IMG/VR virus record: IMGVR_UViG_3300025011_000016
From: a virus
Taxonomy: Duplodnaviria; Caudoviricetes
Direction: 5' to 3' (one strand)
DNA length: 64,000 nt
In this document: in pieces, positions 9,793 through 47,746 of the stretch
Position numbering within the stretch: position 1 is the first letter of the stretch
Layout of the letters: every line of letters starts with the position of its first letter
Translations under genes and position numbers: made by a program
The notes under the pieces: generated by a model
Database searches by the model: none
What the model saw: only the letters and a program-made list of their open reading frames with translations
What the model was told of the DNA's origin: nothing

Positions 9793-12615
9793 ATGAAAAT
9801 TGTACCTAATAAACAACAAAAGAAAGCTGTTATTGAATCAGTGAAATGGTTAAAGAGTGGTTATAAACAAGTCTTTGAAATATCAGGTCCTCCAGGATCA
9901 GGTAAAACCTTTATAGTTTATTTAATACGAAAGGCAATGAAGCTAAATCCCTTGGATGTTCTATTTATGGCATATGTAGGAAAAGCTACAATGGCTTTGA
10001 CATTACAAGGTAATAATGCAAAGACAATGCATAGTTCTATTTATGATAGGGTTGATTTACCTAAGATGGATGAGAATGGTAAGTTTATTTTAAAAAATGG
10101 TAGAATACTTACAACTCCTGGTTTTGTTAAGAAAAAATCTTTACCTGATAATATAAAACTTATAGTGGTGGACGAAGGTTCTATGATTAATGAAAAATAC
10201 GCTTTAGATATTTTAAGCTTCAAGTTACCAGTTTTAGTGCTCGGGGACTTAAATCAGCTTTTTCCTATCTTTGGGAAACCTTATTTCTTAAGACAACCTG
10301 ATATTATATTAACAGAAATTATGAGACAGGCTAAAGATGATCCTATTATTCATTTAAGTCAAAAGGCAATTAATGGTGAAATTATTGAGATAGGAAAATA
10401 TGGTGATAGATGTTTTGTTATTAATAAAGAAGATATCACAGACAATATGCTTACAAAAACAGATATCGTTATTTGTGGTAAAAATAAGACACGGGATCAT
10501 ATAAATAAATATGTTAGAGAAGAAATATATAAAATAGACAAGCCTTATCCAGTAAAAGGTGAGAAATTAATATGTAGACAAAATAATTGGGATATGTCTG
10601 TCGATGAAGGTAAAATATTCTTAGTTAATGGTCTTGTAGGTTACGTTGAAGAAACACATTTAGACACTTATAATAAAAGATCTTTATGTATTGATTTTAG
10701 GCCTGAGTTTTTAAAAGAAACTTGTTTTGAAAGAGTAGCAATTGATTCTTTTATGAGTCACGTTGCATAGTAATATGCAATTGCAACTACTTTAATTGCG
10801 GGAAACTCCTTAGAACTTTATCTACTAATGTAACATGATAAAGATTGGACAATCTGCAGCCAATGATCTATTCATAATAGATTTAGGTCCAACGACTAGA
10901 ATGGGAAAGTTCGTAGGGCTCAAGTGAGTGGGTGAGACTCCCTTAAATCGAAATGGGTGGCCCCATTATAATAATTAGTATAATGGGTGAAGATATAGTC
11001 TGTGCTTTAAGGAAACTTAGAGAATAACTAACCGTAAGTCTTAATAACTATTCTGTATATAATTATATTATACAGTTAACAAATAATATAAGAACGGGGG
11101 TGATATAAAATGATTAAGACTTTTAAAACAAGAATACGACCGAATAAAGAACAAGAGGTATATTTAAATAAGTGCTTTGGGTATAGAAGGTTTATATATA
11201 ATAATGCGTTAGAATACTTTAATACTCTTTTAAAATATAATAATAATGTTATTGATAAGGATTTAAAGAAGTTCTTTGATAAATTTGATTATATTACTCA
11301 TATATATTCTAAGAAAGAAAAGGGACCGGGATTTGAATGGACTAAAGAATATAATAAGTCCATAAAGAATGAAGTGGCTAGTGATGTTAACTTAGCTGTT
11401 AATAGATTTTTTAAAGATATTAAAAATAAGAAGCGTTGTAAACTGCATTTTAAAAGAAAGGTTCATGGAAATGGATCGTTTAGAATATATAGTAAGCATA
11501 AAACTAATGTTATGATTCTTGATATGAAATTATTCTCTTTTATTATTAATAGAGAATTTGGTCATATGTCATTAAAAACATATGAGGACATAAGTTTCTT
11601 ATATCATCATGATATAAAAACAATGACTATTAGTATGAAGAATTTTAAATATTATGTCTCATTTACTTATGAAATAGATGTTCCAAAGCATAAGCATGAG
11701 AAAGATACCATAGGTATAGATTTAGGGATACATAATCCGGTAGTTTGTTTTGATGGAAAAGATATCATAAATCCTAAATTTCCGAAAGGAATTATTAAGA
11801 AACTAGAGAAGAGAGCCGATAAATTTTCAACGATAGTTTCTAAGAAGAAATATGATAAATGTAATCCATCAAAGAACTATATAAAAGCGAGAACCAAGCT
11901 TAATTATATTCATGGTAAGATAGTGAATATTAGAATGGATTATATTCAGAAGGTTTCAACCTTCTTAACTAAGACTTATAGAAATATCGTAGTTGATGAA
12001 TTTAGTTTTAAAGAATTACTAACAGAGTCTGATGGTATTAAACGTATTAATAGAGGTATACATAGAGTAGGTGCCTTTACGTTTATGCAAGTGTTAAAAT
12101 ATAAATGTCACTTTTACGGCAGTGAATATATTTTAGCCGAACCTAATAGTACCATTACATGCTCTGAATGTAATCATAAACTTAAAACTAAGTTGAAGTT
12201 ATCCCAAAGAGTCTTTAATTGTCCTGATTGTGGATATATAGATGATAGGGATAATAATGCGGCTATTAATATTTATAAGTCATATAAGAATCTTTATTAA
12301 CTAACGTAAATAGAGATTTCGCCGTTGGTCGGACGGTTTAAAGAACCTTGACGGTTAAGTTATTGTGGTATCTAACGAATACTACTAACACGACAGTATA
12401 AGCATTTATTTACACCATATGAACAGAGAGATAATAAACGTAGCTATTATAATAAATTTGAATTTGCCAACGCAATAAGCGTTCATTTATCACAAGGATC
12501 ACAATATAATACAGTTTTAATATATAATGAAAGAATGGGAGATAAAGAGTATTATAAGAAATGGTTATATACAGCAATATCGAGAGCGGTATCCGGATTA
12601 GTATTGGCCGTTTAA
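9793..12615 (+). CDS. RecD/Dda-like SF1 helicase, 2 exons (~390 aa spliced)
   Basis: Exon 1 9793-10746 has GPPGSGKT and VDEGSM. Exon 2 12397-12615 has SVHLSQGSQY and LYTAISRA. Junction reads VAID|YKHLF. Confidence 0.88.
10747..12396 (+). mobile_element. IStron-like element 1: group I intron + tnpB + omegaRNA-like right end
   Basis: Inserted after TTGAT. P1 TGAT/GTCA, ribozyme core 10790-11000, tnpB downstream of the S element, conserved right end ...CTAACACGACAG. Confidence 0.88.
11110..12300 (+). CDS. tnpB: TnpB (IS200/IS605-family RNA-guided nuclease)
   Basis: N-terminal KTRIRP..EQ..L..CFG..RFIYN, RuvC-I GIDLG, zinc finger CSEC..CPDC, RuvC-III DRDNNAAINI. Confidence 0.92.
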   Translation: MIKTFKTRIRPNKEQEVYLNKCFGYRRFIYNNALEYFNTLLKYNNNVIDKDLKKFFDKFDYITHIYSKKEKGPGFEWTKEYNKSIKNEVASDVNLAVNRFFKDIKNKKRCKLHFKRKVHGNGSFRIYSKHKTNVMILDMKLFSFIINREFGHMSLKTYEDISFLYHHDIKTMTISMKNFKYYVSFTYEIDVPKHKHEKDTIGIDLGIHNPVVCFDGKDIINPKFPKGIIKKLEKRADKFSTIVSKKKYDKCNPSKNYIKARTKLNYIHGKIVNIRMDYIQKVSTFLTKTYRNIVVDEFSFKELLTESDGIKRINRGIHRVGAFTFMQVLKYKCHFYGSEYILAEPNSTITCSECNHKLKTKLKLSQRVFNCPDCGYIDDRDNNAAINIYKSYKNLY

Positions 12616-23790: not shown

Positions 23791-24381
23791 TCATATTGAG
23801 TCTCGTTGCATAGTAATATGTAATTGTAACTACTTTAATTGCGGGAAACTCCTTAGTGCTTAAAACACTTTTAAAGTAACAAAGTTTAAGATTGGACAAT
23901 CCGCAGCCAAAGTTATTATTTAATAACGAGGCTCAACGACTATCCCAATGGTACTAAAATGTACATTAGGAGTAGGGCTCAAGTGAGTGGGTGAGATTCC
24001 CTTAAATCGAAAAGGGTAGCCCCATTATTATAATGGGTGAAGATATAGTCTGTGCTTTAAGGAGACTTAGAGATATAACTTAACCGTAAGTAAGTCTTAA
24101 TAATTCATTCTTAATAAGATATTATTATAGTTATAACAAATAATATAAGAAGGGGGTGACGATAAATGTTTAAAACTTTTAAATACATCTGACTAAAAAA
24201 GCTATGTATTGACACGAAACTTATAAATAATGGCGATAACCAAGCCTATTAATAATATTTATAAGTTGTAAAAATCTTTATTAACTAGCGTAAATAGAGA
24301 TTTCGCCGTTGGTCGGACGGTTTAAAGAACCTTGACGGTTAAGTTATAAGTGGTATCTAACTAATACTACTAACACGACAG
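23791..24381 (+). mobile_element. Mini IStron-like element 2 (tnpB internally deleted) in the SD-AUG spacer
   Basis: Inserted after GGAT. P1 GGAT/GTCT, intact ribozyme core, tnpB remnant and same right end ...CTAACACGACAG. Confidence 0.88.
24166..24290 (+). pseudogene. tnpB: tnpB remnant (start MFKTFK and last codons only)
   Basis: Same RBS/leader as the full copies, then a stop after 8 codons. The 3' part aligns with ...ATTAATATTTATAAGT..AATCTTTATTAA of element 1. Confidence 0.75.
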
Positions 24382-24385
24382 GAAT

Positions 24386-26063
24386 ATGTCTATTACTAAA
24401 CAGGCTAGAAAACAAATGGAATTATTAATTTATTCAGTATTTACAGCTTTAGATCCAACTGGTTCTAATACTGCTAAATATAAAGAATTATTTGGTAAAA
24501 TGAATGATACTCAATTTGATAAATTCTTCAAAGATTTCTTTAAAGAGGAAGATGAGTATCTTATATTAGACGTTATTGATTATGAGTTAAATCTTCAAAT
24601 GGAAGATGTAGAAAGAGCTGCAAAGATTCTTGATGTACCTTTATTCGAAAAAGTTGCAATGCCATTTATTAACAACAATACAGAAAATCCTGTTGTTACT
24701 CAATATGAAGTTCCGGTTGGTTACATTAACTTGAAACGGGTTCAACAAATATTAGCTAAAAAAAATACTACATCTACAGAAATATCAACACGTTCTGCTA
24801 TAACAGGACAAGTTGTTGGTAAGGATAAAAATGCCAGAGATTCAGATCAGGAGAATTTTGCTCTTGTCACTTTAAATGCTACGAACACATTACGTGAGCT
24901 TTTGGGTTATGTTGCTTAGCCCCTATATACGGTAACGTATATAGCAAACTTCTTTAATTGCAGGAAATTCCTTAGAGCTTATTATATGAAGATTGGATAA
25001 TCTGCATCATATTTTCTAATGATTAAAATATTTTCTTACTAATAAATATACAATATTTTAAAGGATGTGAATTATAAAAATGTATATAGTCATTCGTAAA
25101 GATAGAGAAATATTTAAACTTGTAACATATCCTAAAGTCAAACCTGATACTTATGAAGTTAGTAATTATGGTAATATTAGAAATTTAAAAACTGGCAAAT
25201 TAGTAAAATTATTTCCCGATACAAAAGGTTATCCTTTTGCAAATCTTATGTATAAAAAATCCATTGCTCGTAGTGTTAATATCCATAGGTTGGTAGCGTG
25301 GGAATTTGTAGATGGATATGATATAGATCGAGGGAGAACTAATGTTAATCATCTGGACAGCGATCCTACTAATAATTATTATGAAAACCTTGAATGGGTT
25401 ACAACTAAAGAAAATAATCAACATGGTATTAAACATGGTAAGATTAGATTTGGTGCAGGTGGTAGTCTAAATTATAAAGCTAGATATAATGAAGAATTTT
25501 GTTCGTAAACTATGTCCATACATTGAAAAAGGACTCACTCAAATGGAAATAATGCATATTTACGGTTATAAAACAAGAAAAGAAAATAAAAGTTTATATT
25601 CTTTAATAGATGGAATTTACTGGGGTGTGTGGAGAGAGGTATCAAAAGAATTTAATATTAATATAAAACAAGAAAAATGTTCAACGACTATCCTTTAGAT
25701 GTGAAATTCATCATTAGGAGTAGGGCCTAAGTAGGTGGGTGAGACTCCCTTAAATCGAAATAAGAAGCATCTTATATAAGATGATGATATAGTCTTGTAT
25801 CCTATATAACTATAGGGAAGTTCATAAGAGAACTGCATAGATTAACGAACTATGTGAAAGTATCGCCCAGGAGTGATGACCTTGTGATGAAAAATCAAAT
25901 GTATGCTAGTATAGCTCAAAAAGGATATGTATCACTAGATGAACTACCGAACGATGTTGCCAATAAAACAACGCTGAATACAATTGATGTGCATCTTATT
26001 GGCTTAGGTATTAAAAGCGATTTAATCACTCAAGGATTATTAGTTAGAAAGACTATGAAATAA
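24386..26063 (+). CDS. RNA polymerase beta-subunit C-terminal fragment (~239 aa spliced; probably virion RNAP)
   Basis: Exons 24386-24907 and 25866-26063. VPVGYINLKR..ARDSDQENFAL..TLRELLG|PRSDD parallels bacterial RpoB VTVGYMYMLKL..RFGEMEVWAL..TLQEMLTVKSDD. Confidence 0.75.
24908..25865 (+). mobile_element. Group I intron with HNH endonuclease ORF in P6 region
   Basis: P1 GGGT/GCCC. Q motif lies before and R/S motifs after the ORF. Ends ...GTATCG. Confidence 0.88.
25080..25698 (+). pseudogene. Intron-encoded NUMOD4/HNH endonuclease, frameshifted
   Basis: HRLVAWEF..NHLDSDPTNNYYENLEW. One extra T in GAATTTTGTT (~25500) splits EEF|VRKLC into ORFs 25080..25508 and 25489..25698. Confidence 0.75.
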
Positions 26064-33527: not shown

Positions 33528-36500
33528 ATGGCAGTAACACCACCAAAGAAAGTGGTCCCAAATTTATCATTGAAAGAAACATTGCAAGAGAAGGAACAAT
33601 TATATCATGGTAAAGATGATATATTCGGAATGACATTACTTACCAATCCAGGGTATATTAGTGCATCTCGAAACATTATGTTTACTTCTCATTTAAGACA
33701 ATTCGTAAATTTGAATAAACCGGATTTCCCAAAAGTATTAACGAATTATGAAAATCTTGTTGGTAAACATTCAACTGGATATTTCAAACCTAAGAATGAT
33801 TTAATCGTTGTGGATAAGATACCCAAGTTTAATGATATAAATGATGCAAATCATTTATATCTATTATTCTTATATGATAAGAAGACTAATACTTACTCCG
33901 TTATACAGAAAAAGATCGTTGAAGATCTAACAGAGAAGTTTGGTTTTAAATATAAGAATGATCTTATGGATTCTAAATCTATCGGAGATAAAATACAAGG
34001 AGGTAAAACATTATATTCATCCACATCATATGATGAAGATGATAATTATAACTATGGTAGAAATATTAAGTTTATGTATCTACTTGAAAACAATACTATT
34101 GAAGATGCCATAAAGTGCTCTGAATCGTTATCTAAAGAAATGACTTCGACTGAGGTTGAAACTGTAAAGATATCATTCAATGATAATGAAATCATGTGTA
34201 ATCTTTATGGCAACAATGATGAATACAAAGGTTTTCCAGATATTAATGAAAGGGTTAAAGATAAGATCATATGTGCCAAAAGAAGAATTCATAACAATCA
34301 ATTATTATTCGATCTAAAGAAATCAAATCTACGTAAGATTAATTTTATGTCAGATAACTTATTCTTTATTGATGGAAAGATTGTTGATATTACTATCTAT
34401 TCAAATAAACCTATTGGAGAAATTGAAGATAATATCTTTAATCATCAAATGTTAAAATACCTTAAAATGCAAAAAGAATTTTATACTAAAGTTTTAGATA
34501 GGTGTAAAAAGATAATTGCATCTGGAGCTAAATATTCAAATGAAATAAATTTCTATTATAAGAAAGCTAAGAATATATTAGACGATAATTACATGTACAA
34601 GGAAGAAGATAACAGTGTATTTAGTAATATGGTTATTGAATTCCTTGTTGAACGAGAAGTTCCTTTATCAGTAGGACAGAAGATTACTGGTCGTTACGGT
34701 AATATAATTGCTGTATTTTCTTTAATTGTCGGGGATATCCTTATAGCTTAAACTACTATTAGTAACAAGTTTAAGATTGGACAATTCGCAGCCAAGATTG
34801 TTAATAAACAATAAGGTTCAACGACTAGAGTGAAAACTCGTAGATTCGAAAGAATTGAAATGGGAAAACGATAGATTTTAATCTATTGAAGATATAGTCT
34901 AATATCCTAATGGAAGTTAGGGAAGTTCATAAGAGAACTGCATTATATAATAATGTGAATACTTGAATAAAGGTATTATAAGTCAGATCATACCAGATGA
35001 AGAAATGCCATTTCTTGAAACTGGTGAACGTGTCGATTGTATATTCAACTCCCTAAAATTTTGGGGCTTTATGTAGTGATATATAATGAAAACTACTTTA
35101 ATTGCGGGAAAATTCTTATGGCTTTATAATATAAAGATTGGACAATCCGCAGCCAAGATTGTTAGTAAACAATAAGGTTCAACGACTAGAGTGAGAACTC
35201 GTAGATATTAATATCGAAATTGGTAGAATCTTCTATATAGAAGATTATGAGATAGTCTGGTATCCTATATAACTATAGGGAAGTTCATAAGGGAACTGCA
35301 TTAATTAATAATTACTGTGAACACAACGAGGTGTGATAAATCGCTTAACTGAGAAGGTCCGGGCGATGTAAAACCTTTCTAATTGCGGGGACATTTGTTA
35401 ATTTCAATTTACCAAGTTAATATATTAATGGCTTAGTCCAATCAACTAAGGTATGGTAATAAGAATTGAAATTGAGTAATCCGCAGCCAAGATTGTTAAT
35501 AAACAATAAGGTTCAACGACTAGAGTGAAAACTCGTAGGTTTATTTATAAGCCGAAACGGAAGGCTGGTAATACTTAATATTATTAGAAGATATAGTCTA
35601 AAACATTTGTGAACTCATTTCAGTTATATGAGCAGTCAATAAATTTTATATGTAATCGCATAAGAGAAAGAATTGCGATAACAGAAGATATCTCTATAAA
35701 AGAACAAATGGTATTTAGTATTGTGGGTCATTTTAATCCTGAAGAACAAAGAAGACTTAGGATATATTATGATAAGTTATCAGATAATGGTAAGGATCAT
35801 TTCTTCGATGATATAGTCAAGCAAGGTATCTATATACACATTCCTCCACTTTGGGAAGACGTATGTTTATTCGATAAACTAAGAGCAATATATGCTGAAT
35901 TCACATGGATAAAACCATACTCAGTTTATGTGAATAAATTTGGAAGAAAGATCAAAATGATGAAGGATTTAATTGTCGGAGAAATGTATGTTCTTAAATT
36001 AAATCAAACTTCAAAGAAAGGTTTTTCAGCCAGATCCACTGGTTCGTTATCGAAGAGAGGAATTCCTATTTATTTATATGGGACTATATAGAGTAATCTA
36101 TATTGTGAAAACATTTTAATTGACGGGAAACTCCTTAGAACTTCTTAATTGAAGATTGGACAATCCGCAGCCAAGTCTCTTATAATAAGAGAAAGGTTCA
36201 ACGACTAATTTAGAGCTCAAGTGAGTGGATGAGAATCCTTTTAAATCAAAATAAATGTCATCCGTAAAAATAATAAATAACGGATGGTGATATAGTCTTG
36301 TATCCTATATAGTTATAGGGAAGTTCATAAGAGAACTGCATAGATTAACGACCTATGTGAAAGTATCGGAGAAATCAAATAAAGCAAAAACCCATCAAGA
36401 ATTATATCCACATACGCCTCAATTTGTAGGGGCTGTTGTATAGTAATATATAATGAATCTTTCTTAATTGACGGGAACCTTCTTAGAGCCTTATTTACTA

Positions 36501-37552
36501 AACTATAAGTATTATAGTGGCCAGAATAATTAACTGGGTATAGTAATAAAAATAAGGATTGGATAATCCGCAGCCAAGATTCTTATATAAGAATAAGGTT
36601 CAACGACTATCGAAAGCTTTTAATTAAGTTAGTAGAGTAAGCTCACAAGTCAATAATGGTGAGTTAAAACAGAAAGCTCCTAGAAATAGGATAAAGATAT
36701 AGTCTGCTATCTCAAGGAAACTTGAGGAGTTCATAATGGAACTGCATAAATTGACGATTTATGTGAACAAAAAAGGATACGAATTGGAGATTACTTATAT
36801 AGTTTCCCTGCATAGTAATATGCAGTTTAACAACTCTTTTAATTGACGGGAAACTCCTTAGTGCTTTATAATATAAAGATTGGACAATCCGCAGCCAAGC
36901 CTCTTTATGAGAGAAAGGTTCAACGACTAGAGCATTGCTCATAGATTTACAAGTTAATGGTAAGTCGAAATGGAGAGCTCTATTAATAAACTTTATTAAT
37001 AGATGAAGATATAGTCTGCACCTTAAAGAAATTTAAGGACAATCTTTTGAATTGTAATACATGTTACGAATGTATTTAACATATTGGCAGGAAAATATTA
37101 ACAGTATGATAGGTGTCGATCCAGACATCATAGCTAAACTACATTTATTCTATAGGTCTTCAGTTGTTGGAAGAAGAAACTTAGGTGAAACTTTGGCAAC
37201 TAGACTTAAGTTATTAAATGATTTTAAGTATTCTGCGGAATTCAAAAATAGAAATGTTGAAATTTTACAGGCATATTTAAAAGCTATGGGCGTAAAGATT
37301 GTATTTGAAAATGAGAATATGTATATTGAAATCTATACTGATCAGTTAGAAGAATATTCATCTGAGGGTAGGATATATATATGTACTAAACGTGAGTTTG
37401 AAGCCGTTCAGAGAGAAGCAGAAGTTCGCAGAGAGTTCCGTGAGGATAAGTGCTTAGTGGGAACTCATGCTGAAGTTGAAGCTATTATTCAAGCTCGTAT
37501 CAGCGATCTAAACAAACGAGATACTCATTATGTAATTGACATAAATTTATAA
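33528..37552 (+). CDS. RNA polymerase beta-subunit C-terminal half (probably non-virion RNAP), 7 exons / 6 introns (~755 aa)
   Basis: Exons 33528-34700, 34966-35054, 35329-35345, 35610-36067, 36369-36419, 36777-36791 and 37088-37552 (2268 nt). Restores KITGRYG|NKG, FNSL|GVINR|LNSFQ, GIP|EK and TP|IRIGD|QEN. Confidence 0.88.
34701..34965 (+). ncRNA. Group I intron betaC-I1
   Basis: P1 TACGGT/GCTGTA and core motifs. Confidence 0.88.
35055..35328 (+). ncRNA. Group I intron betaC-I2
   Basis: P1 CCCT/GGGG and core motifs. Confidence 0.88.
35346..35609 (+). ncRNA. Group I intron betaC-I3 (no recognisable P9 domain)
   Basis: P1 ATCGCT/GGCGAT and core motifs. Only 11 nt lie between GATATAGTC and the terminal G. 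Confidence 0.8.
36068..36368 (+). ncRNA. Group I intron betaC-I4
   Basis: P1 TCCT/GGGA and core motifs. Confidence 0.88.
36420..36776 (+). ncRNA. Group I intron betaC-I5
   Basis: P1 GCCT/GGGC and core motifs with a variant P7-P8 region. Confidence 0.85.
36792..37087 (+). ncRNA. Group I intron betaC-I6
   Basis: P1 GGAGAT/GTTTCC and core motifs. Confidence 0.85.
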
Positions 37553-39186: not shown

Positions 39187-42100
39187 GTGAAAGATATGGA
39201 TAAGCAAAATATAATATCACAATTAAGTGATATTCATCAAAGGTTATTAGAAAAAGAAGATTTTGTTGATACTATACAGAGACTAGAATTAATGAAGATC
39301 AATAGACTTATCAATTATCTTTTATATGCAATTACTGAATATGATCCAGATGACAAATTAATACTTCAATTATTAATAAGGATATTGCAAAATATCTTTA
39401 ATAATAGTAGTGAAATATCTCCTGTGACCGATGAGGATTATGATAAATTATATGAGTTAAACAGACAATTTAATAATGAAGAAATTGTTGGATCGTCTTT
39501 TAATAAATCCAATAAGATAATTTCAAGTCATAAATATCCTGATTTGAGAGGAACTCTAGATAAGGTCCATTTCATTAGAATTAAAGATAAGGGTAAAGAC
39601 AAACGAAGATCTATAGAAGATTTTATTAATACTGTAGAAAATAAAATAGGCAGATCTTTAACTAAGGATGAATCATTCGCCTATCTATTTCCTAAATGGG
39701 ATGGTATATCATGTATATTCGAATGTGATGAAAATGGTAATACCGATAAGGCATTATCTAGAGGTGATACTGATATAAATGAAGCGGTCGACTGGACTAA
39801 ATTGTTTAAAGGATCTAATTTCAAGTATGTGTTCGGTAATGATATAAATAGATTATTTGGTTTAAAAACAGAGATTGTAATGAGTCGTTCAAATTATAAA
39901 TTAATATGTGAAAAAGAAGGAGATCTTAAAAGTCCAAGGAGTGCCGTATCGTCTATATTAACTTCATTAACTGGTGACACATCGAATTTACCATATCTAA
40001 CTATAATACCTTTACAGACTCAGGAGTTTGAAACTAAATCTATATATACTCCAACTATAGTATATGATGAGTTTCCATACAGTGGAGGATATTTAAACAA
40101 TTTAGATGAGATCGAATTAAGAATGTTGGAGTTAAGAGAACGTATTTATACTGAAATGGATATAGATACAGATGGTGTGGTTTTTCGTTTAGCTGATCCA
40201 TATATACAAAAACTATTGGGTCGGGAAGATAAGATAAATAAATATGAGTTTGCATATAAATTCCCTCCAGAACAAAAGAAAACTATAATTAAAAATGTTA
40301 ATTTCTCAGTTGGTCTTTTAGGTTCAGTGCGACCAGTAGCAGTAATAAAACCTGTTACAATAAAAGGTAATACTATAACCAATATATCATTGGGTTCTAT
40401 AGATAGATTTGAAGAATTGGATTTAAGATTAGGTGATGAAGTTATAATAAAATATGATGTTATACCATACCTATCAATAGATTCAACATGTAGAAAAGGA
40501 GATGGGACTAAGTTTACAACTCCAACAAAATGTATATATTGTAAGGAAGAATTAGTTAAAGATCCCATATTGAAATGTATTAACGAAAAATGTAATTGTC
40601 GAATTATAGGTAAGATTCTAAACTATACTAGTAAGATGAGTATTTCAAATATGGATGTTGGAACAGTAACCACTTTATTTGAAAATAAGTTATTACGATC
40701 TATTGGTGATCTATATAAACTCAAAGATCATAAATCTGATATAGTTTCATTAAGTGGTTTTGGTGAAAAATCCTTTAATAATATTATTAAAGGTATTGAT
40801 TCAAGACGAGATGTTTATGATTATGAGTTATTGGGTTCATTGGGTATTACAGATATAGGTAGGAAAATGTTTAAGCGAATTTTAAATATATATTATATTG
40901 ATGAACTTATAGATTCAAGTACATGAGTCTCATTGCATAGTGATATGTAATAGTAATTACTTTAATTGCGGGGATCTCCTTAGAACTTAAAACACTCTAA
41001 AGTAATAATGTTTAAGATTGGACAATCCGCAGCCAAGATTCTTAATAAAGAATAAGGTTCAACGACTATCCCAGTGGATGTGAAATTCATCATTAGGAGT
41101 AGGGCTCAAGTGAGTTGGGTGAAATCCCATTAAATCGAAATGAGTAACCCCATTATAAACCATTATAATGGGTGAAGATATAGTCTGTGCTTTAAGGAAA
41201 CTTAAAGATATAACTTAATCGTAAGTCCTAAAAATTTCATTTATATATTATTACTATGATACTAACAAATAATATAAGAAAGGAGGTGAATTAAATTGAT
41301 TAAAACTTTTAAAACAAGAATACGACCGACGAAAGAACAAGAAGTATATTTAAACAAATGCTTTGGATACAGAAGGTTTATATATAATAATGCTTTAGAA
41401 TACTTTAATACGATCTTAGAATTCAATGGTAATAATCTGGATAAAACATTAAAGAAGTTCTTTAATAAGTTTGATTATATCACTAATATATATTCTAAGA
41501 AAGAAAAAGAACCTGAACTGGAATGGACTAGGGAATATAATAAAAACATAAAGGATCAGGTATCTAGTGATTTTAATATAGCTGTTAATAGATTCTTTAA
41601 CGATATTAAAAATAAGAAGCGATGTAAACTTCATTTTAAAAGAAAGATCCATGGAAATGGGTCTTTTAGAATATACAATAAAAATAAAGGTAATGTTAAA
41701 ATTCTTGATAAAAACATATTCTCTTTTATTATTAATAGAGAATATGGTCATATGTCATTAAAAACATATGAAGATATAAGCTTTTTATATCATCATGATA
41801 TAAAAACTATGTCTATTCGTATGAAGAATTTTAAATATTATGTTTCATTCACCTATGAATTGGACATTCCAAAGCATGATCATGAGAAAGACATCATAGG
41901 TATAGACTTAGGGATACATAATCCAGTAGTTTGTTTTGATGGAAAAGATGTCATAGCTCCTAAATTTCCGAAAGGAATTATTAAGAGACTAGAGAAGAAA
42001 GTCGATAAGTTTTCAACGATAGTTTCTAAGAAGAAATATGATAAACGTAATCCATCAAAGAACTATATAAAAGCGAGAACCAAGCTTAATGATATTTATA

Positions 42101-42952
42101 TTAAAATAACAAATATCAGAATGGATTATATCCAGAAGGTATCTACATTTTTAGCTAAAACTTATAAAAACGTTATAGTTGATGAATTTAGTTTTAAGGA
42201 TGTATTAACAGAGTCTGATGGTATTGAGCGTATAAATAGAGGTATACACAGAGTTGGTGCCTTTACATTTACCACAGTGTTAAAATATAAATGCCACTTT
42301 TATGGTAGTGAATATATTTTAGCATTACCTAACAGTACGAACACATGCTCTGTTTGTAATCATAAAGTTAAAACTAAAATGAAGTTATCTCAAAGAGTCT
42401 TTAATTGCCCACAATGTGGACATATAGATGATAGAGATAACAATGCGGCTATTAATATCTATAATACATTTAAACGATCTTTATTAACTAACGTAAATAA
42501 AGATTTCGCCGTTGGTCGGACGGTTCAAAGAACCTAAACGGTTAAGTTATTATGGTATCTAACGAATACCATTAACACGACAGTTATGCCTAAAGAATAA
42601 GATGGGAGGGCTGTTATTAATCCGTGGGATTAAAGAAATAACAGCCGTTAAAATTATTGAGGGCATAAAGTCGAATAAAAAACTTATTGATTTATTACGA
42701 TCCGAGATTAATTTAAGGAGGGATGTAAGACGATATACAATTAAAGTATGTTTTACTAAAGTTAGAGATAAAGATTTTGAGAAATTTCTTGAAAGTAAGA
42801 ATGTATTGGTTCTTGAAAAATATAATAAGGAGGTTGATGTGTTAATCATACCTTATAAAGATATTGATTCAGTCAAAGTTACTACTGCGAAGAAAGATGG
42901 TAAGGATATCGTAACCATCGATGAAGCTTATAAGATGTTTGGTTATAAGTAG
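39187..42952 (+). CDS. ligA: NAD-dependent DNA ligase, 2 exons (~698 aa)
   Basis: Exon 1 39187-40914 has PKWDG, DGVV, AYKF and a C4 zinc finger. Exon 2 42584-42952 has HhH and BRCT-like tail. Junction LID|LCLK is in frame. Confidence 0.9.
40915..42583 (+). mobile_element. IStron-like element 3: group I intron + tnpB
   Basis: Inserted after TAGAT. P1 AGAT/GTCT, core motifs and right end ...TTAACACGACAG. Confidence 0.88.
41296..42537 (+). CDS. tnpB: TnpB, close paralog of 11110..12300
   Basis: Same motifs (GIDLG, CSVC..CPQC, DRDNNAAINI). TTG start after AAGGAGG. The ORF reads into the right-end RNA. Confidence 0.92.
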   Translation: MIKTFKTRIRPTKEQEVYLNKCFGYRRFIYNNALEYFNTILEFNGNNLDKTLKKFFNKFDYITNIYSKKEKEPELEWTREYNKNIKDQVSSDFNIAVNRFFNDIKNKKRCKLHFKRKIHGNGSFRIYNKNKGNVKILDKNIFSFIINREYGHMSLKTYEDISFLYHHDIKTMSIRMKNFKYYVSFTYELDIPKHDHEKDIIGIDLGIHNPVVCFDGKDVIAPKFPKGIIKRLEKKVDKFSTIVSKKKYDKRNPSKNYIKARTKLNDIYIKITNIRMDYIQKVSTFLAKTYKNVIVDEFSFKDVLTESDGIERINRGIHRVGAFTFTTVLKYKCHFYGSEYILALPNSTNTCSVCNHKVKTKMKLSQRVFNCPQCGHIDDRDNNAAINIYNTFKRSLLTNVNKDFAVGRTVQRT

Positions 42953-43525: not shown

Positions 43526-46500
43526 TTGAAGGACTTCATAAAGGATTATAACAACACCAATGAAGAAAATATCAATTTTGATCTAATGACACGATCACAT
43601 GATGCTGATTTAACAGAGTATGTTGTTAATACCTGTAAATCATTAGAAGTTCTTAAATATATTAAATTCATTGGTTATGAATATATAACTGATGAAACGA
43701 AAATAGATATTAATTACTATATGAGTACGAGGAAGAAAAGTAAGAAGAAAAATGAAACAAAGTATATGTACCTGCAAGATAGTCGATATGGTGAAATGCA
43801 TTTAAAGTTTCATTTAAAATGTAAAGATCGATCATTAACTTTTATCAAGAAGATATTATTACCAGTGGCTGATGATAATGATTATTATTTAGTTAAAGGT
43901 AAAAGACATTCATTATTATATCAACTAGTTGATAGTTCAACTTATACAACTAGACAGAATTTAACATTAAAATCATTAAGACCTATTACGATGAAACGAA
44001 CTGAAAGAATATATTCAGATACAGATGGTACTAAACATTCAGCTCCTTCATATGCAATTTATATCTTCAAGAAAGAAGTAGATATATTATTATTCTATTT
44101 TGCAAAGATAGGTGTGTCAAGAACTTTAGAATATTTTTCAGTAAATCATATAATGAAGTTTAAATCAGAAATTGAAGATACTATCAATAATATATATTTC
44201 TCAATTAATAGTAAATTACATGTAGAGATCAATAGACATTTCTTTGATAAATATCCATATGTTAAGAGTATAGTATTTATGATATTGAATATTTGCACTA
44301 ATAGATTAACTGTTGAAGATCTAGAAAATAAATCTTTCTGGATTGAAAAGATAGGCTCTATGAATGCGACTAATGCATATAACTATCTAGAAAAAGGTAC
44401 TAATACTTTAGTATTCTTTGATAGGTTATTAGATGAAACAACTAAGAATATTTTAAAAATTCATGATGAGAATAATAAAAATATATACTCTGTAATTCGT
44501 TGGATTAAATTATAGTCCCATTATAGAGTGATCTATATTGAAAACTTCTTTAATTGTCGGGAAACTCCTTAGTGCTTTATAAAGATAAAGATTGGACAAT
44601 CCGCAGCCAAGATTCTTATAATAGGAATAAGGTTCAACGACTAATTTAGAGCTCAAGTGAGTGAGTTTAATATAACTCTTAAATCGAAATAAGAAGCATC
44701 TTATATAAGATGATGATATAGTCTGTGCTTTATTGAAAGATAAAGAAAGATAACATCTTTACATTATCTAACGAATAATGTTAACACTCAGGTTTCAAAA
44801 CTTTAATGAATTACGTAAGAAAGATAATCTTGATCTTGCCAATAAACGTTTACGATGTAATGAACTCATCGCATCATTATTAACTAAAGCTTTTAGTACT
44901 AGAGTTGATAGAATTATTGGTTTTGGTAATAAAGTTACGTTAGATAACATTAAGGAAATATTCAAATTTCCAGGTGATGTAATAATGCAGCAATTGCATA
45001 AGTCAGGATTATTTAGATATGATATTTTATTGTCCATTATAGTAGTGATATTATAATGAATTTTCTTTAATTGGCGGGGACATTCTTAGGGCTTAAACTA
45101 CTAAAATATATCAGTGATGATATACTAACTAAGAGTAACTAACTTAGTATGAGTAATAATGTTTAAGATTGGACAATCCGCAGCTAAGCATCTTTATATA
45201 AACCCCCATAATTATTAATACGTTATACAATATAAAGGAGAGGTGTGACTGTAATGAAAGGACGATTGGGTGAAAATAAATGTCCCTCTTGTTACGAATA
45301 ATTATTCAATTAATTCTGAGGGATTTATTAGGAATGATAAATTCAATAGAATTTTGACCCGATGGAAAAATAATAGAGGTTATGAAGCTGTGCAATTATC
45401 ATGTATTGATGGTATAACAAGAAGTTTTACAATTCATAGATTGATGGCTCATCATTTTATACCAGGGTTCGACATTTCAGATAGATCCATTGTTGTTCAT
45501 CATAAGGACAGTGTAAATAAAACTAACTCATTAGATCTTCTAACCGTTTGTACTCAAAAAGAAAATATTAAGTATTCTATCGAAGAAGGTAATAAACCAA
45601 ATGGTGAAAAACATCCGATGGGTAAATTTCCAGATGAGCTGGCTAATAAAATAGTTGCCTTATTACAAAAAGAAAAAAGTACCGATGAAATATTTAATAT
45701 ATTAGATTTAGAAGTTAAGAAGAATATGCGTATATTTATAAATGATCTTAGAGCTAAACGAACCCGATTGTATTTAACTGAAGGTTTGGATTTAAAGAAG
45801 CATGTGCAGGAAAAACATGATATAAACTTGGTGAAGAGGGTGATTCGTTATATGAAGATAGGTATGACGGTAGATAATATAATCAATATGATTGGAAAAG
45901 GAAATGCTGGTAGGCATGAAAGGGAGAGATACTCCTCGTTAATACAAAGGATACATGACGGGAAAGCGTGGGGAAGATTATATAAAGATGATAGTTCAAC
46001 GACTAATGATGACTACATGGTTATTAAAATTAAAATGTAGTTATAGATTTACAAGCTAATGGTAAATCGAAATGGGGAACACCTCATATTAAGTTGATAT
46101 GAGATGAAGATATAGTCTGGTATCCTAATATTAAATTAGGGAAGTTCATAAGAGAACTGGGTTTCGTTGCGGAAAACCTGAACCTGGGGATAAAATTAAC
46201 GATCTCGACTTCTTTAGTAAGTTCAAATATACCCTAAATTTTGGGGCGTTATAGAGTGATCTATATAGATAAAATTCTTTAATTGTCGGGGAACTCCTTA
46301 GAACTTCTTAATTGAAGATTGGACAATCCGCAGCCAAGATTGTTGATAAACAATAAGGTTCAACGACTAGAGTATAACTCGTAGATATATAAGTTAATGA
46401 TATATCGAAATAAGTTTAATCTTCTTATAGAAGATTGTGATATAGTCTTGTATCCTATATAACATTAGGGAAGTTCATTTGAGAACTGTATAGAGTTACG

Positions 46501-47746
46501 ATCTATATGAAAGTATACGTAAAGGACCAAATTCCTTGGGTTTTAATAAATAGGCCCATGATCTTTTAATTGCGGGAAACTCCTTAGTACTTCTATATGA
46601 AGATTGGACAATCCGCAGCCAAAATTGTTGATAAACAATAAGGTTCAACGACTAGAGTATAACTCGTAGATATATAAGTTAATGATATATCGAAATATAG
46701 AACTATCGAAAGATAAAGAGATAGTCTGGTATCCTAATTAACATTAGGGAAGTTCACAGGAGAACTGCATTATTTTACGAATAATGTGAACTCATCGAAT
46801 AAAAATGATAATAATATCTCAGTTAAATATCGCGGCATACACCCGAGTTATCTGGCCCGCGTAGATATTAACGTTTGCGGTGAACGTAGAAATATAATTG
46901 CCGCCTTTTCTTTAATTGACGGGAACTCCCTTATAGCTTAAACTACTAATAGTAACAAGTTTAAGATTGGACAATCCGCAGCCAAGATTGTTATAAAACA
47001 ATAAGGTTCAACGACTAGAGTGATAACTCGTAGATTCGAAAGAATTGAAATGGGAAAACGATAGAGTTATTCTATTGAAGATATAGTCTAATATCCTAAT
47101 ATAAGTTAGGGAAGTTCATAAGAGAACTGCATAGATTGATAAACTGTGTGAATAAATGAATTCAGACCCTAGAAATAAATTTGGGGCAATATCGAGTGAT
47201 CGTTATTGTTAAACTACCTTGACTGCGGGAAACTTCTTAGAGCTTTAAATTGATAAAGATTGAACAATCCGCACCCGATATTCTATATAATAGAATAAAG
47301 TTCAACGACTAGAGCATATTTGCTCGTAGATATAAAGTTATATCGAAATTAGTAGAATCTCTTAGGAGATTATGAGATAGTCTGGTATCCTATATAACTA
47401 TAGGGAAGTTCATAAGAGAACTGTACTATTTAACGAATAGTATGAACACACGGGAACTAGTGGTATTATAACACCATTCTGTAAAACTAGTGGATTATTC
47501 TTCGATGGTGCATTTGAACCAGAAAGTTTTAAATATGATTTTGATAAGGAGATAACTGACTTTAGAAAATCAACTAGTAATAACATAATTGTTGATACTC
47601 ACTATGATAATATATCTGAGTATTTTGAAGGTAGAGAACGATTTAAAGAAATGAATAGTCGAATCAAAATATCAGAGATTGAACGAACTGATAATAGTAA
47701 GTATTATATTAAAATTAAGCTTGCTAGTAATACTGATGATATATAA
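43526..47746 (+). CDS. RNA polymerase beta-subunit N-terminal half (probably non-virion RNAP), 7 exons / 6 introns (~556 aa)
   Basis: Exons 43526-44505, 44792-45023, 46189-46235, 46520-46541, 46798-46881, 47159-47170 and 47453-47746 (1671 nt). Restores KFKYT|LKGPNSLG|NKN..RGIHPSYLARVDINVCG|NSDP|GTSG, matching the RpoB fork-loop region. Confidence 0.85.
44506..44791 (+). ncRNA. Group I intron betaN-I1
   Basis: P1 GGAT/GTCC and core motifs. Confidence 0.87.
45024..46188 (+). mobile_element. Group I intron betaN-I2 with HNH ORF
   Basis: P1 GAT/GTC. Q precedes the ORF, R lies inside the ORF 3' end, and S is at 46107. Confidence 0.85.
45270..46040 (+). CDS. Intron-encoded HNH homing endonuclease
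   Basis: IHRLMAHHF..VHHKDSVNKTN..TQKEN. GTG start. Confidence 0.8.
   Translation: MKINVPLVTNNYSINSEGFIRNDKFNRILTRWKNNRGYEAVQLSCIDGITRSFTIHRLMAHHFIPGFDISDRSIVVHHKDSVNKTNSLDLLTVCTQKENIKYSIEEGNKPNGEKHPMGKFPDELANKIVALLQKEKSTDEIFNILDLEVKKNMRIFINDLRAKRTRLYLTEGLDLKKHVQEKHDINLVKRVIRYMKIGMTVDNIINMIGKGNAGRHERERYSSLIQRIHDGKAWGRLYKDDSSTTNDDYMVIKIKM
46236..46519 (+). ncRNA. Group I intron betaN-I3
   Basis: P1 CCCT/GGGG and core motifs. Confidence 0.87.
46542..46797 (+). ncRNA. Group I intron betaN-I4
   Basis: P1 TGGGT/GCCCA and core motifs. Confidence 0.87.
46882..47158 (+). ncRNA. Group I intron betaN-I5
   Basis: P1 GCGGT/GCCGC and core motifs. Confidence 0.87.
47171..47452 (+). ncRNA. Group I intron betaN-I6
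   Basis: P1 CCCT/GGGG and slightly divergent core (GACTGCGGGAAA, AATCCGCACC). Confidence 0.85.

Follow-up and report, generated by a model that had tools for sequence, protein, structure and literature searches.

How does a phage make its DNA ligase when the gene is interrupted by a 1,669-nt element that carries a tnpB gene of its own, and why has that gene been kept? The question arises in a 64,000-nt stretch of DNA ("the window") from IMG/VR record IMGVR_UViG_3300025011_000016, which represents an uncultured, AT-rich jumbo phage from groundwater. The element combines a group I ribozyme and an IS200/IS605 tnpB module within a single insertion, as IStrons do. We propose that it is a TnpA-less, group A-like IS200/IS605 IStron that lies in the helix-hairpin-helix region of the gene for the phage's NAD-dependent DNA ligase, and we consider this identification to be very probable; the splicing, omegaRNA, and homing steps that we ascribe to it are predictions.

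Both ends of the element can be placed to the nucleotide, and it occupies positions 40915 to 42583 (1,669 nt, + strand). On the left, the boundary falls directly after T40914 of ATAGAT. The last five bases of exon 1, TAGAT (40910 to 40914, + strand), form the exon strand of the ribozyme's P1 helix and are the presumed target-adjacent motif (TAM), or transposon target motif. In P1, exon AGAU and intron UCA pair with UGAGUCU, and the U.G wobble at T40914 is exactly at the in-frame junction, so the intron should start at 40915. On the right, the boundary is G42583, the presumed intron-terminal G, at the end of ...AACACGACAG and followed by TTATGCC. Three elements in the window share their last 30 nt (...TAACACGACAG), which end at 12396, 24381, and 42583, and in a pairwise alignment of the ligase copy to the sister copy in a helicase gene, similarity ends exactly at G42583. 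The initial annotation had reported a 1,669-nt insertion after ATAGAT, which is borne out by the P1 wobble and by the limits of the similarity between the sister copies, but it placed the end at 42603 (40915-42603), which is 20 nt too far. The similarity stops at 42583, and only the span 40915-42583 gives both a length of 1,669 nt and the fusion LID/LCLK (the slash marks the junction).

Removing the element in silico restores the ligase gene, and the ends of the element coincide with the predicted splice sites. Exon 1 (39196 to 40914, + strand) encodes the adenylation domain, the OB fold, and the first helix-hairpin-helix motifs (Pfam DNA_ligase_aden and DNA_ligase_OB). Exon 2 (42584 to 42952, + strand) comprises 122 codons and a stop and encodes a further helix-hairpin-helix motif and a BRCT-like tail, whose match is weak (E = 0.043, under the Pfam cut-off). 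When position 40914 is joined to 42584, the result is an in-frame ligase of 695 amino acids. We aligned this protein with ten uninterrupted homologs from related large phage contigs (689-701 amino acids) and found zero indels across the junction, so the in-frame fusion LID/LCLK that had been proposed for this locus holds up. The spliced product reads ...ELID/LCLK..., and the closest homolog (70% identity) has YYIDELID/LCLN. The empty site of this closest relative, CTTATAGAC followed by TTATGTCTAAATGATAG (TAGAC/TTATGTC), has a codon boundary that matches the junction. The ligase probably starts at ATG 39196 (MDKQ...), as in public gene calls, and a Shine-Dalgarno-like motif (GGGGTGA) lies just 5' of this codon; GTG 39187 is the mechanical start of the open reading frame (ORF). 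Those public gene calls split the ligase (at 40924-40926 and 42602) into a 576-amino-acid protein that ends with the intron-encoded residues SST and an unannotated ORF of 116 amino acids. The split arises because the annotation ignores introns, and the gene is thereby misreported.

Could a repeat element have been misthreaded into the ligase gene during assembly? The element is a multi-copy repeat, several contigs break inside it, and one contig that carries a family member (L012, discussed below) is a chimera of two copies. However, all nine contigs that were read, which come from ENA, JGI, and Logan and represent different assemblers and several samples, agree at the left junction: the element joins exon 1 with zero mismatches. 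Four of the nine carry the whole element exactly and span into exon 2. Furthermore, the ribozyme's internal guide sequence is site-specific, and sequence peculiar to this copy runs unbroken through the whole element. We consider an assembly artifact to be exceedingly unlikely.

We also considered whether the element might not be spliced at all, so that the ligase would consist of two polypeptides or would be a truncated 576-amino-acid enzyme (...ELIDSST), with a separate 116-amino-acid piece translated from ATG 42602. Both of these ORFs are called genes, and the catalytic core (the adenylation domain and the OB fold) is encoded wholly within exon 1. Nevertheless, this explanation is very improbable, as the element has a complete ribozyme whose P1 lies exactly at the in-frame junction, and comparison with the uninterrupted homologs shows conservation of exon 2 in the same register, including the six exon-2 codons that lie 5' of ATG 42602. 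We looked for a Shine-Dalgarno motif upstream of ATG 42602 and found none, whereas many of the tabulated neighboring starts match 5-6 of 6 positions. Because exon 2 has no Shine-Dalgarno motif of its own before this ATG, its expression probably depends on splicing. Exon 2 is also still maintained as a coding sequence, since it is 74% identical at the amino acid level to the nearest uninterrupted homolog, with a ratio of nonsynonymous to synonymous divergence (dN/dS) of 0.27; the corresponding values for exon 1 are 71% and 0.14. We do not count the open frame of exon 2 itself as evidence: since the + strand is mostly coding, 13% of its 122-codon windows chosen at random are stop-free. Relative to the nearest uninterrupted ligase (L010, 1760-3850), dS is 1.58 for exon 1 but far lower, 0.61, for exon 2. 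This gap could reflect the noise of a small sample, constraint on the nucleotide sequence around the junction, or a tract that was once co-converted.

The ribozyme makes up the 5' part of the element. Its core, P1-P9 (40915 to 41207, + strand), covers model positions 1-253 of 253 of RF00028; the match itself, at 40905-41207 on the + strand, is at 80.3 bits (the gathering score is 50; E = 2.5e-20) and is of full model length. An Rfam scan of the whole window with default filters overlooked this ribozyme, and a sensitive scan detected it. It is the 23rd group I intron in these 64 kb: at the gathering threshold Rfam identifies 22, which are on the + strand without exception. The ribozyme has a large insertion at the position of P7.1/P7.2, and its core is similar (by blastn) to introns of Staphylococcus phages; these features are consistent with subgroup IA (group A IStrons are defined as having IA2 ribozymes). 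The internal guide sequence is GAGUCU, at 40925-40930. Across the four copies of the IStron that can be delimited in this phage, the base at exon position -4 is always paired to base 6 of the internal guide GAGUC(A/U), as U:A in two copies, A:U in one, and G.U in one. Since this pairing is kept in all four copies, the data fit with each ribozyme being matched to its own insertion site. The P2 hairpin (40935-40948) lies where IS200/IS605 elements have their left-end palindrome, and from the published description of group A elements (PMC4227781), we infer that it is this palindrome. Hairpins are conserved near both ends of the element, namely P2 and the terminal hairpin of the right end.

Downstream of the ribozyme, and separated from it by a spacer of 88 nt, is tnpB (41296 to 42537, + strand), which encodes 413 amino acids from a TTG start codon. 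The 3' end of the spacer is the Shine-Dalgarno sequence AAGGAGGTGA (41280 to 41289, + strand), with a perfect AGGAGG, which ends six bases 5' of the TTG. The protein matches the Pfam families HTH_OrfB_IS605, OrfB_IS605, and Cas12f1-like_TNB. Its residues 3-389 align with the structures of the TnpB of ISDra2 (8bf8, 8exa, and 8h1j; E = 1e-22), and its RuvC residues D204, E297, and D381 align to D191, E278, and D361 of ISDra2, as expected for an OMEGA nuclease. Both CxxC pairs of the zinc finger are kept (CSVC at 351 and CPQC at 371). At its 3' end, the ORF extends across hairpins one and two of the right end and into hairpin three, and it finishes with ...AVGRTVQRT*. This read-through had been presented as a peculiarity of the ligase copy. 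It is indeed present, but the tail ...SLLTNVNKDFAVGRTVQRT is common to three of the four proteins of the family, and only the helicase copy, shortened by the deletion of 1 nt, lacks it. The long form with read-through is thus normal for this family, and the helicase copy is the exception.

The right end of the element (42476 to 42583, + strand) has the position and the size expected of an omegaRNA scaffold, which is what we presume it to be. It is about 108 nt long, overlaps the last 62 nt of tnpB, and ends with ...AACACGACAG (...ACGACAG). The consensus of five right ends gives four stem-loops, and the terminal hairpin has one compensatory change, from G-C to A-U. Among the aligned ends, the right end is the most conserved block of the family, and it is retained by a mini copy that lacks tnpB. 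All of the right ends that we saw finish with ACAG, as ...ACACGACAG. From the published layout of IS605 and IStron omegaRNAs (10.1101/2023.11.20.567912; PMC13565253), we infer that the guide is formed by the first nucleotides of exon 2. The presumed guide part, the first 18 nt of exon 2 (42584 to 42601, + strand; TTATGCCTAAAGAATAAG), is unique in the window even if 3 mismatches are allowed.

The ligase copy was initially counted as the second IStron of the phage. A sister copy does exist, but "second" is an undercount: there are at least three full-length copies, along with a mini copy and two right ends with other flanks. The sister IStron (10747 to 12396, + strand) is 1,650 nt long and lies after TTGAT in a gene for a RecD/Pif1-like helicase. 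Its tnpB (11110-12300) encodes 396 amino acids, and both TnpB and the two helicase exons are matched by Pfam. Over its full length it is 85.6% identical to the ligase copy. The third full-length copy follows ATGAT on a 248,564-bp contig of this phage (L013, 2138-3785); neither of the exons that flank it has a match in Pfam. The mini-IStron (23791 to 24381, + strand) is 591 nt long, lies after AGGAT, and consists of a ribozyme (RF00028, 86.3 bits), remnants of tnpB, and a right end. It separates a Shine-Dalgarno sequence (AAAGGAGG) from the ATG at 24386 of the ORF at 24386-24919, so apparently only splicing would set this ribosome-binding site beside its start codon.

Besides the four delimited copies (ligase, helicase, L013, and mini), a fourth family protein (P0122) is encoded at L012 1963-3614, on a chimeric contig of 3,952 bp (ENA ERZ909591). 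L012 matches the helicase copy exactly for its first ~600 nt; thereafter it is another copy of the family, 82-91% identical, whose 3' flank (ACAG followed by ATAAGGTAGATACC) is new. A further right end, with the flank GATGGAGATATTG after ACAG, lies at 1-183 of a 1,017-bp contig (L018; JGI Ga0209319_1043958), which was the sole contig that a search of the JGI metagenome contigs with the right-end motif returned. The 3' end of the tnpB on L018 encodes IDGRDNNAS where the ligase copy has IDDRDNNAA. We considered whether this was the remnant of a dead nuclease and rejected the idea: the catalytic aspartate, which is the second D of DRD and aligns to D361 of ISDra2, is retained.

The helicase, ligase, and L013 copies are 86-89% identical to each other, and with all four full-length sequences included, overall identity is 85-92%, although the maximum involves the chimeric L012. 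Among the four insertion motifs (TTGAT for the helicase copy, ATGAT for L013, TAGAT for the ligase copy, and AGGAT for the mini copy), GAT is invariant, and positions -4 and -5 differ from the published group A bases. Outside of this phage, relatives are remote. Among 5.8 billion proteins, four are at least 84% identical to the ligase-copy TnpB, and the next best is 38% identical. Searches of IMG/VR with TnpB and with the right-end motif found no relatives. We also considered the TnpBs of other phage contigs of ~210-250 kb (P0128 and others, ~30% identity) as possible relatives and rejected them; the one examined, L016, has no detectable group I intron beside its tnpB, which lies between genes. 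On that ENA contig (L016, 2501-3709; 212,183 bp), a 402-amino-acid TnpB, ~30% identical, is encoded near a reverse transcriptase gene (RVT_1), and many similar 402-amino-acid TnpBs are found on contigs of 230-250 kb.

The ligase-copy TnpB had been described as an intact but diverged paralog of the helicase-copy TnpB, and we agree: the genes are 86.5% identical at the nucleotide level, the proteins share 327 identical residues in an alignment of 413 columns, and the catalytic residues are in place. The initial annotation suggested comparing dN and dS between the two genes. We did so (Nei-Gojobori, 388 codons) and obtained dS = 0.49, dN = 0.089, and dN/dS = 0.18, with a bootstrap 95% interval of 0.12-0.26. 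Because this ratio is so low, tnpB has not evolved neutrally and has been under purifying selection since the copies diverged. Also, the tnpB ORFs are open in all four family members that have one (396-413 amino acids). The divergence had been taken to imply independent insertions. The sites are separate, but with a dS of 0.49 and no close relative elsewhere, spread within the lineage fits at least as well. Indeed, as no outside relative exceeds 38% identity, the copies most likely diverged within this phage lineage.

How might the element persist in a gene that is presumed to be essential? Under our proposal, transcription of the ligase gene would run through the element. Most transcripts would self-splice, joining 40914 to 42584, so that full-length ligase would still be made, and some unspliced transcripts would yield TnpB. 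TnpB would form a complex with an omegaRNA composed of the right-end scaffold and the first ~16-20 nt of exon 2. This complex would cut ligase alleles that contain (T)NGAT followed by TTATGCCTAAAG..., that is, intron-free copies in related phages that co-infect the cell; the predicted target for the ligase-copy TnpB is TTATGCCTAAAGAATAAGAT. The break would then be mended by recombination with the occupied allele, which would bring in the element; the whole process would amount to RNA-guided intron homing. Because a single 3' junction serves both splicing and omegaRNA formation, the two would be mutually exclusive for any one transcript, as in clostridial IStrons. Movement to new sites might involve TnpA supplied in trans (by the host or by an earlier genome) or reverse splicing. 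A lytic phage would meet empty alleles only in co-infecting relatives, so the likely payoff of keeping tnpB is homing or the exclusion of competitors among phages, which is the only obvious payoff in this setting.

Several observations weigh against this proposal. First, the start codon of tnpB is TTG. Second, the motif is TAGAT rather than the canonical TTGAT, so the cleavage of the cognate empty site by TnpB may be poor. Third, there is no current homing target in evidence: a search of the JGI metagenome contigs for the exact 21-nt spliced junction found nothing, and the site of the nearest relative differs at the last base of the TAM and at 5 of the 18 guide positions. (The JGI collection is evidently incomplete for this phage: the scan for the right-end motif missed a 241,705-bp JGI contig that bears the ligase locus.) Fourth, the P10 pairing of the ligase copy with exon 2 is just 3 bp and is no better than with the exons of the other copies; the corresponding pairing is 5 bp in the helicase copy and 5-6 bp in the mini copy. 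Fifth, the right end has no Rfam family at E ≤ 1, and as a single sequence, its fold is only modestly better than those of shuffled sequences (z = -1.8). Finally, the 68 ORFs of the window match 51 Pfam families, and among the 25 that were listed, there is no Y1 transposase (TnpA).

Some of these points would also suit a fossil, that is, an element that splices and is hence tolerated but that neither moves nor homes. There would then be little or no TnpB expression, and the signal of selection would predate the settling of the element in this genome. Besides the TTG start codon, the non-canonical TAGAT motif, the lack of tnpA among the listed families of the window's ORFs, and the absence of an empty allele from our searches, the population is clonal (0-1 mismatches in 9.7 kb across assemblies), and one member of the family, the mini copy, is already without tnpB. 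But the mini copy also shows what decay looks like, and all four of the family's tnpB ORFs are open, with a dN/dS of 0.18 at a dS of 0.49. The ribosome-binding site of tnpB is perfect. And without an outside relative above 38% identity, the divergence most likely occurred within the lineage while the genes stayed intact. Overall, we think that a fossil is unlikely.

A different reason to keep the elements would be a benefit to the phage: TnpB and its omegaRNAs might be retained as a weapon against co-infecting relatives, or they might act as a brake on splicing that tunes the expression of the interrupted genes, such as those for the ligase and the helicase. Several copies lie in core replication genes, each with a different guide derived from its exon, and their near-identical scaffolds imply that any TnpB could load any guide. 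There are also precedents for each role: in phage PhiPA3, an intron-encoded endonuclease is reported to mediate interference between phages (PMC11620839), and the binding of TnpB represses the splicing of a clostridial IStron (10.1101/2023.11.20.567912). However, sequence cannot separate a benefit to the phage from selfish drive, and the site of the nearest known relative would probably escape cleavage. No regulatory signal was found either: between 39000 and 43200, promoter- and terminator-like sites occur at chance level. We consider a benefit to the phage to be a doubtful explanation, about as improbable as a fossil.

Selfish homing by a TnpA-less IStron remains our preferred explanation, and it might be extended in two ways. 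First, the phage has at least five near-interchangeable right ends, with guides from different genes, and if the TnpBs cross-load them, then the family could act as a multiplexed homing drive or exclusion weapon. Second, the family could have been born within the phage, from an IS605 tnpB and a resident group I intron, independently of bacterial IStrons. In a tree of ribozymes, the four IStron ribozymes form one clade (support 1.0) that is nested among the phage's ORF-less introns (the closest are 73-76% identical), but the tree included no bacterial IStron ribozymes as outgroups, so an origin within the phage is just a conjecture. Taken together, the two extensions are tentative, and we lean against them.

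To our knowledge, IStrons have been dissected so far only in the chromosomes of clostridia and Bacillus, and the published copies in phages are only of the IS607 type, from Clostridium botulinum. Among known elements, the nearest are the group A IStrons of Clostridioides difficile and its relatives, CdISt1/CdiIStron (Braun 2000; Tourasse 2014, PMC4227781; Zedaveinyte 2023/24), and our comparison with CdISt1 draws on the published descriptions. Group A elements have CAG at their 3' terminus and lie directly downstream of pentanucleotides that resemble TTGAT (PMC4227781). TTGAT is also the published TAM of IS605-type IStrons, in which TnpB-omegaRNA and splicing compete (10.1101/2023.11.20.567912). 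The ligase IStron shares with group A the order of ribozyme, tnpB, and structured right end; the U.G pair at the last exon base; transposon ends that coincide with the (here predicted) splice sites; a target pentanucleotide that ends in T; and the CAG end. Its helicase sister follows exactly TTGAT. Like group A elements, it encodes an IS605-family TnpB (ORF B); the Y1 TnpA (ORF A) is optional in that group and often lost, and derivatives that lack TnpA or any ORF are known in both. There are also differences: the group A elements reside in a bacterial chromosome and this family in a virulent-looking groundwater jumbo phage, the target is TTGAT there and a relaxed NNGAT here, and the terminus is TCAG there and ACAG here, the latter being a single-base change from a motif whose definition draws on few families.

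Phages have a precedent as carriers of IStrons, because CbISt3 and CbISt4 were described in the C. botulinum phages c-st and D-1873 (PMC4227781). These are likewise IStrons on large phage genomes, but they belong to group B and are of the IS607 type: they have sites that end in GG, a CGG end, splicing after G instead of U, and a serine-recombinase TnpA, carried or ancestral. In the record for phage c-st, the best tblastn match to the ligase-copy TnpB is 30% identical. Among deposited phage genomes, the nearest TnpB (32.7% identity) is instead from the Staphylococcus jumbo phage Machias (MW349128.1, ~270 kb). It lies inside gyrB (L017, 900-2585) and is annotated as a "transposase," with the gyrB coding sequence joined across it. 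The Machias element follows ...CGGAT and ends with ...AACAAGACAG (AAGACAG), as compared to ...AACACGACAG in the ligase copy. Its ribozyme-like core is far smaller (AATTGCTGGAAAGG ... TTCAACGACTAA ... GATATAGTCT) and has no Rfam match at E ≤ 0.01. In the literature, we found no paper that describes the Machias gyrB element as an IStron.

The nuclease itself can be compared with ISDra2 TnpB-omegaRNA (Karvelis 2021, PMC8612924; structures 8exa and 8h1j). The homology extends over the full length of TnpB, the catalytic residues are conserved, the TAM is of the TTGAT type, and the omegaRNA of ISDra2 comes from the right end and the flank, as we predict for the ligase IStron. However, ISDra2 has no intron, has tnpA, and has demonstrated transposition and cleavage, while the activities of the ligase IStron are predicted. 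In its proposed way of life, the ligase IStron resembles the homing-endonuclease introns of phages, such as td/I-TevI of T4 and the gp210 intron of PhiPA3 (PMC11620839), in which a core gene contains a self-splicing intron whose nuclease acts against intron-free alleles of co-infecting relatives. Those endonucleases recognize a long site by themselves, whereas the nuclease of the ligase IStron would be guided by RNA, via the flanking exon. A 2026 review proposed that TnpA-less IStrons could spread through homing, including among co-infecting phages (PMC13565253).

Overall, the ligase element is a real and well-delimited addition to the known class of IStrons. Its value is that it belongs to a diverged and selected multi-copy family of the IS605 type, in a jumbo phage, that is apparently without a transposase (no tnpA was seen in the 64-kb window). 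This family makes RNA-guided intron homing between viruses concretely testable. Also, its near-identical scaffolds, known guides, and assorted motifs (TTGAT, TAGAT, ATGAT, and AGGAT) provide a basis for gauging how far the TAM can relax in this clade of TnpBs.

More broadly, the ligase protein of exon 1 is encoded by 18 public contigs, with lengths that reach 272,509 bp; their sources are the groundwater metagenomes of project PRJNA268031 and the JGI samples 3300024999 and 3300025000. No deposited phage genome resembles the region outside of the intron core (by blastn). The window also encodes both subunits of gyrase (A and B), a DnaB-like helicase, the RecD/Pif1-like helicase, a tubulin, a ParA-type ATPase, an SMC-like protein, and HNH endonucleases. 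Its group I introns are often clustered, for instance at 34665-37038 and 46225-47111, and their density is unusually high for any region of a phage genome.

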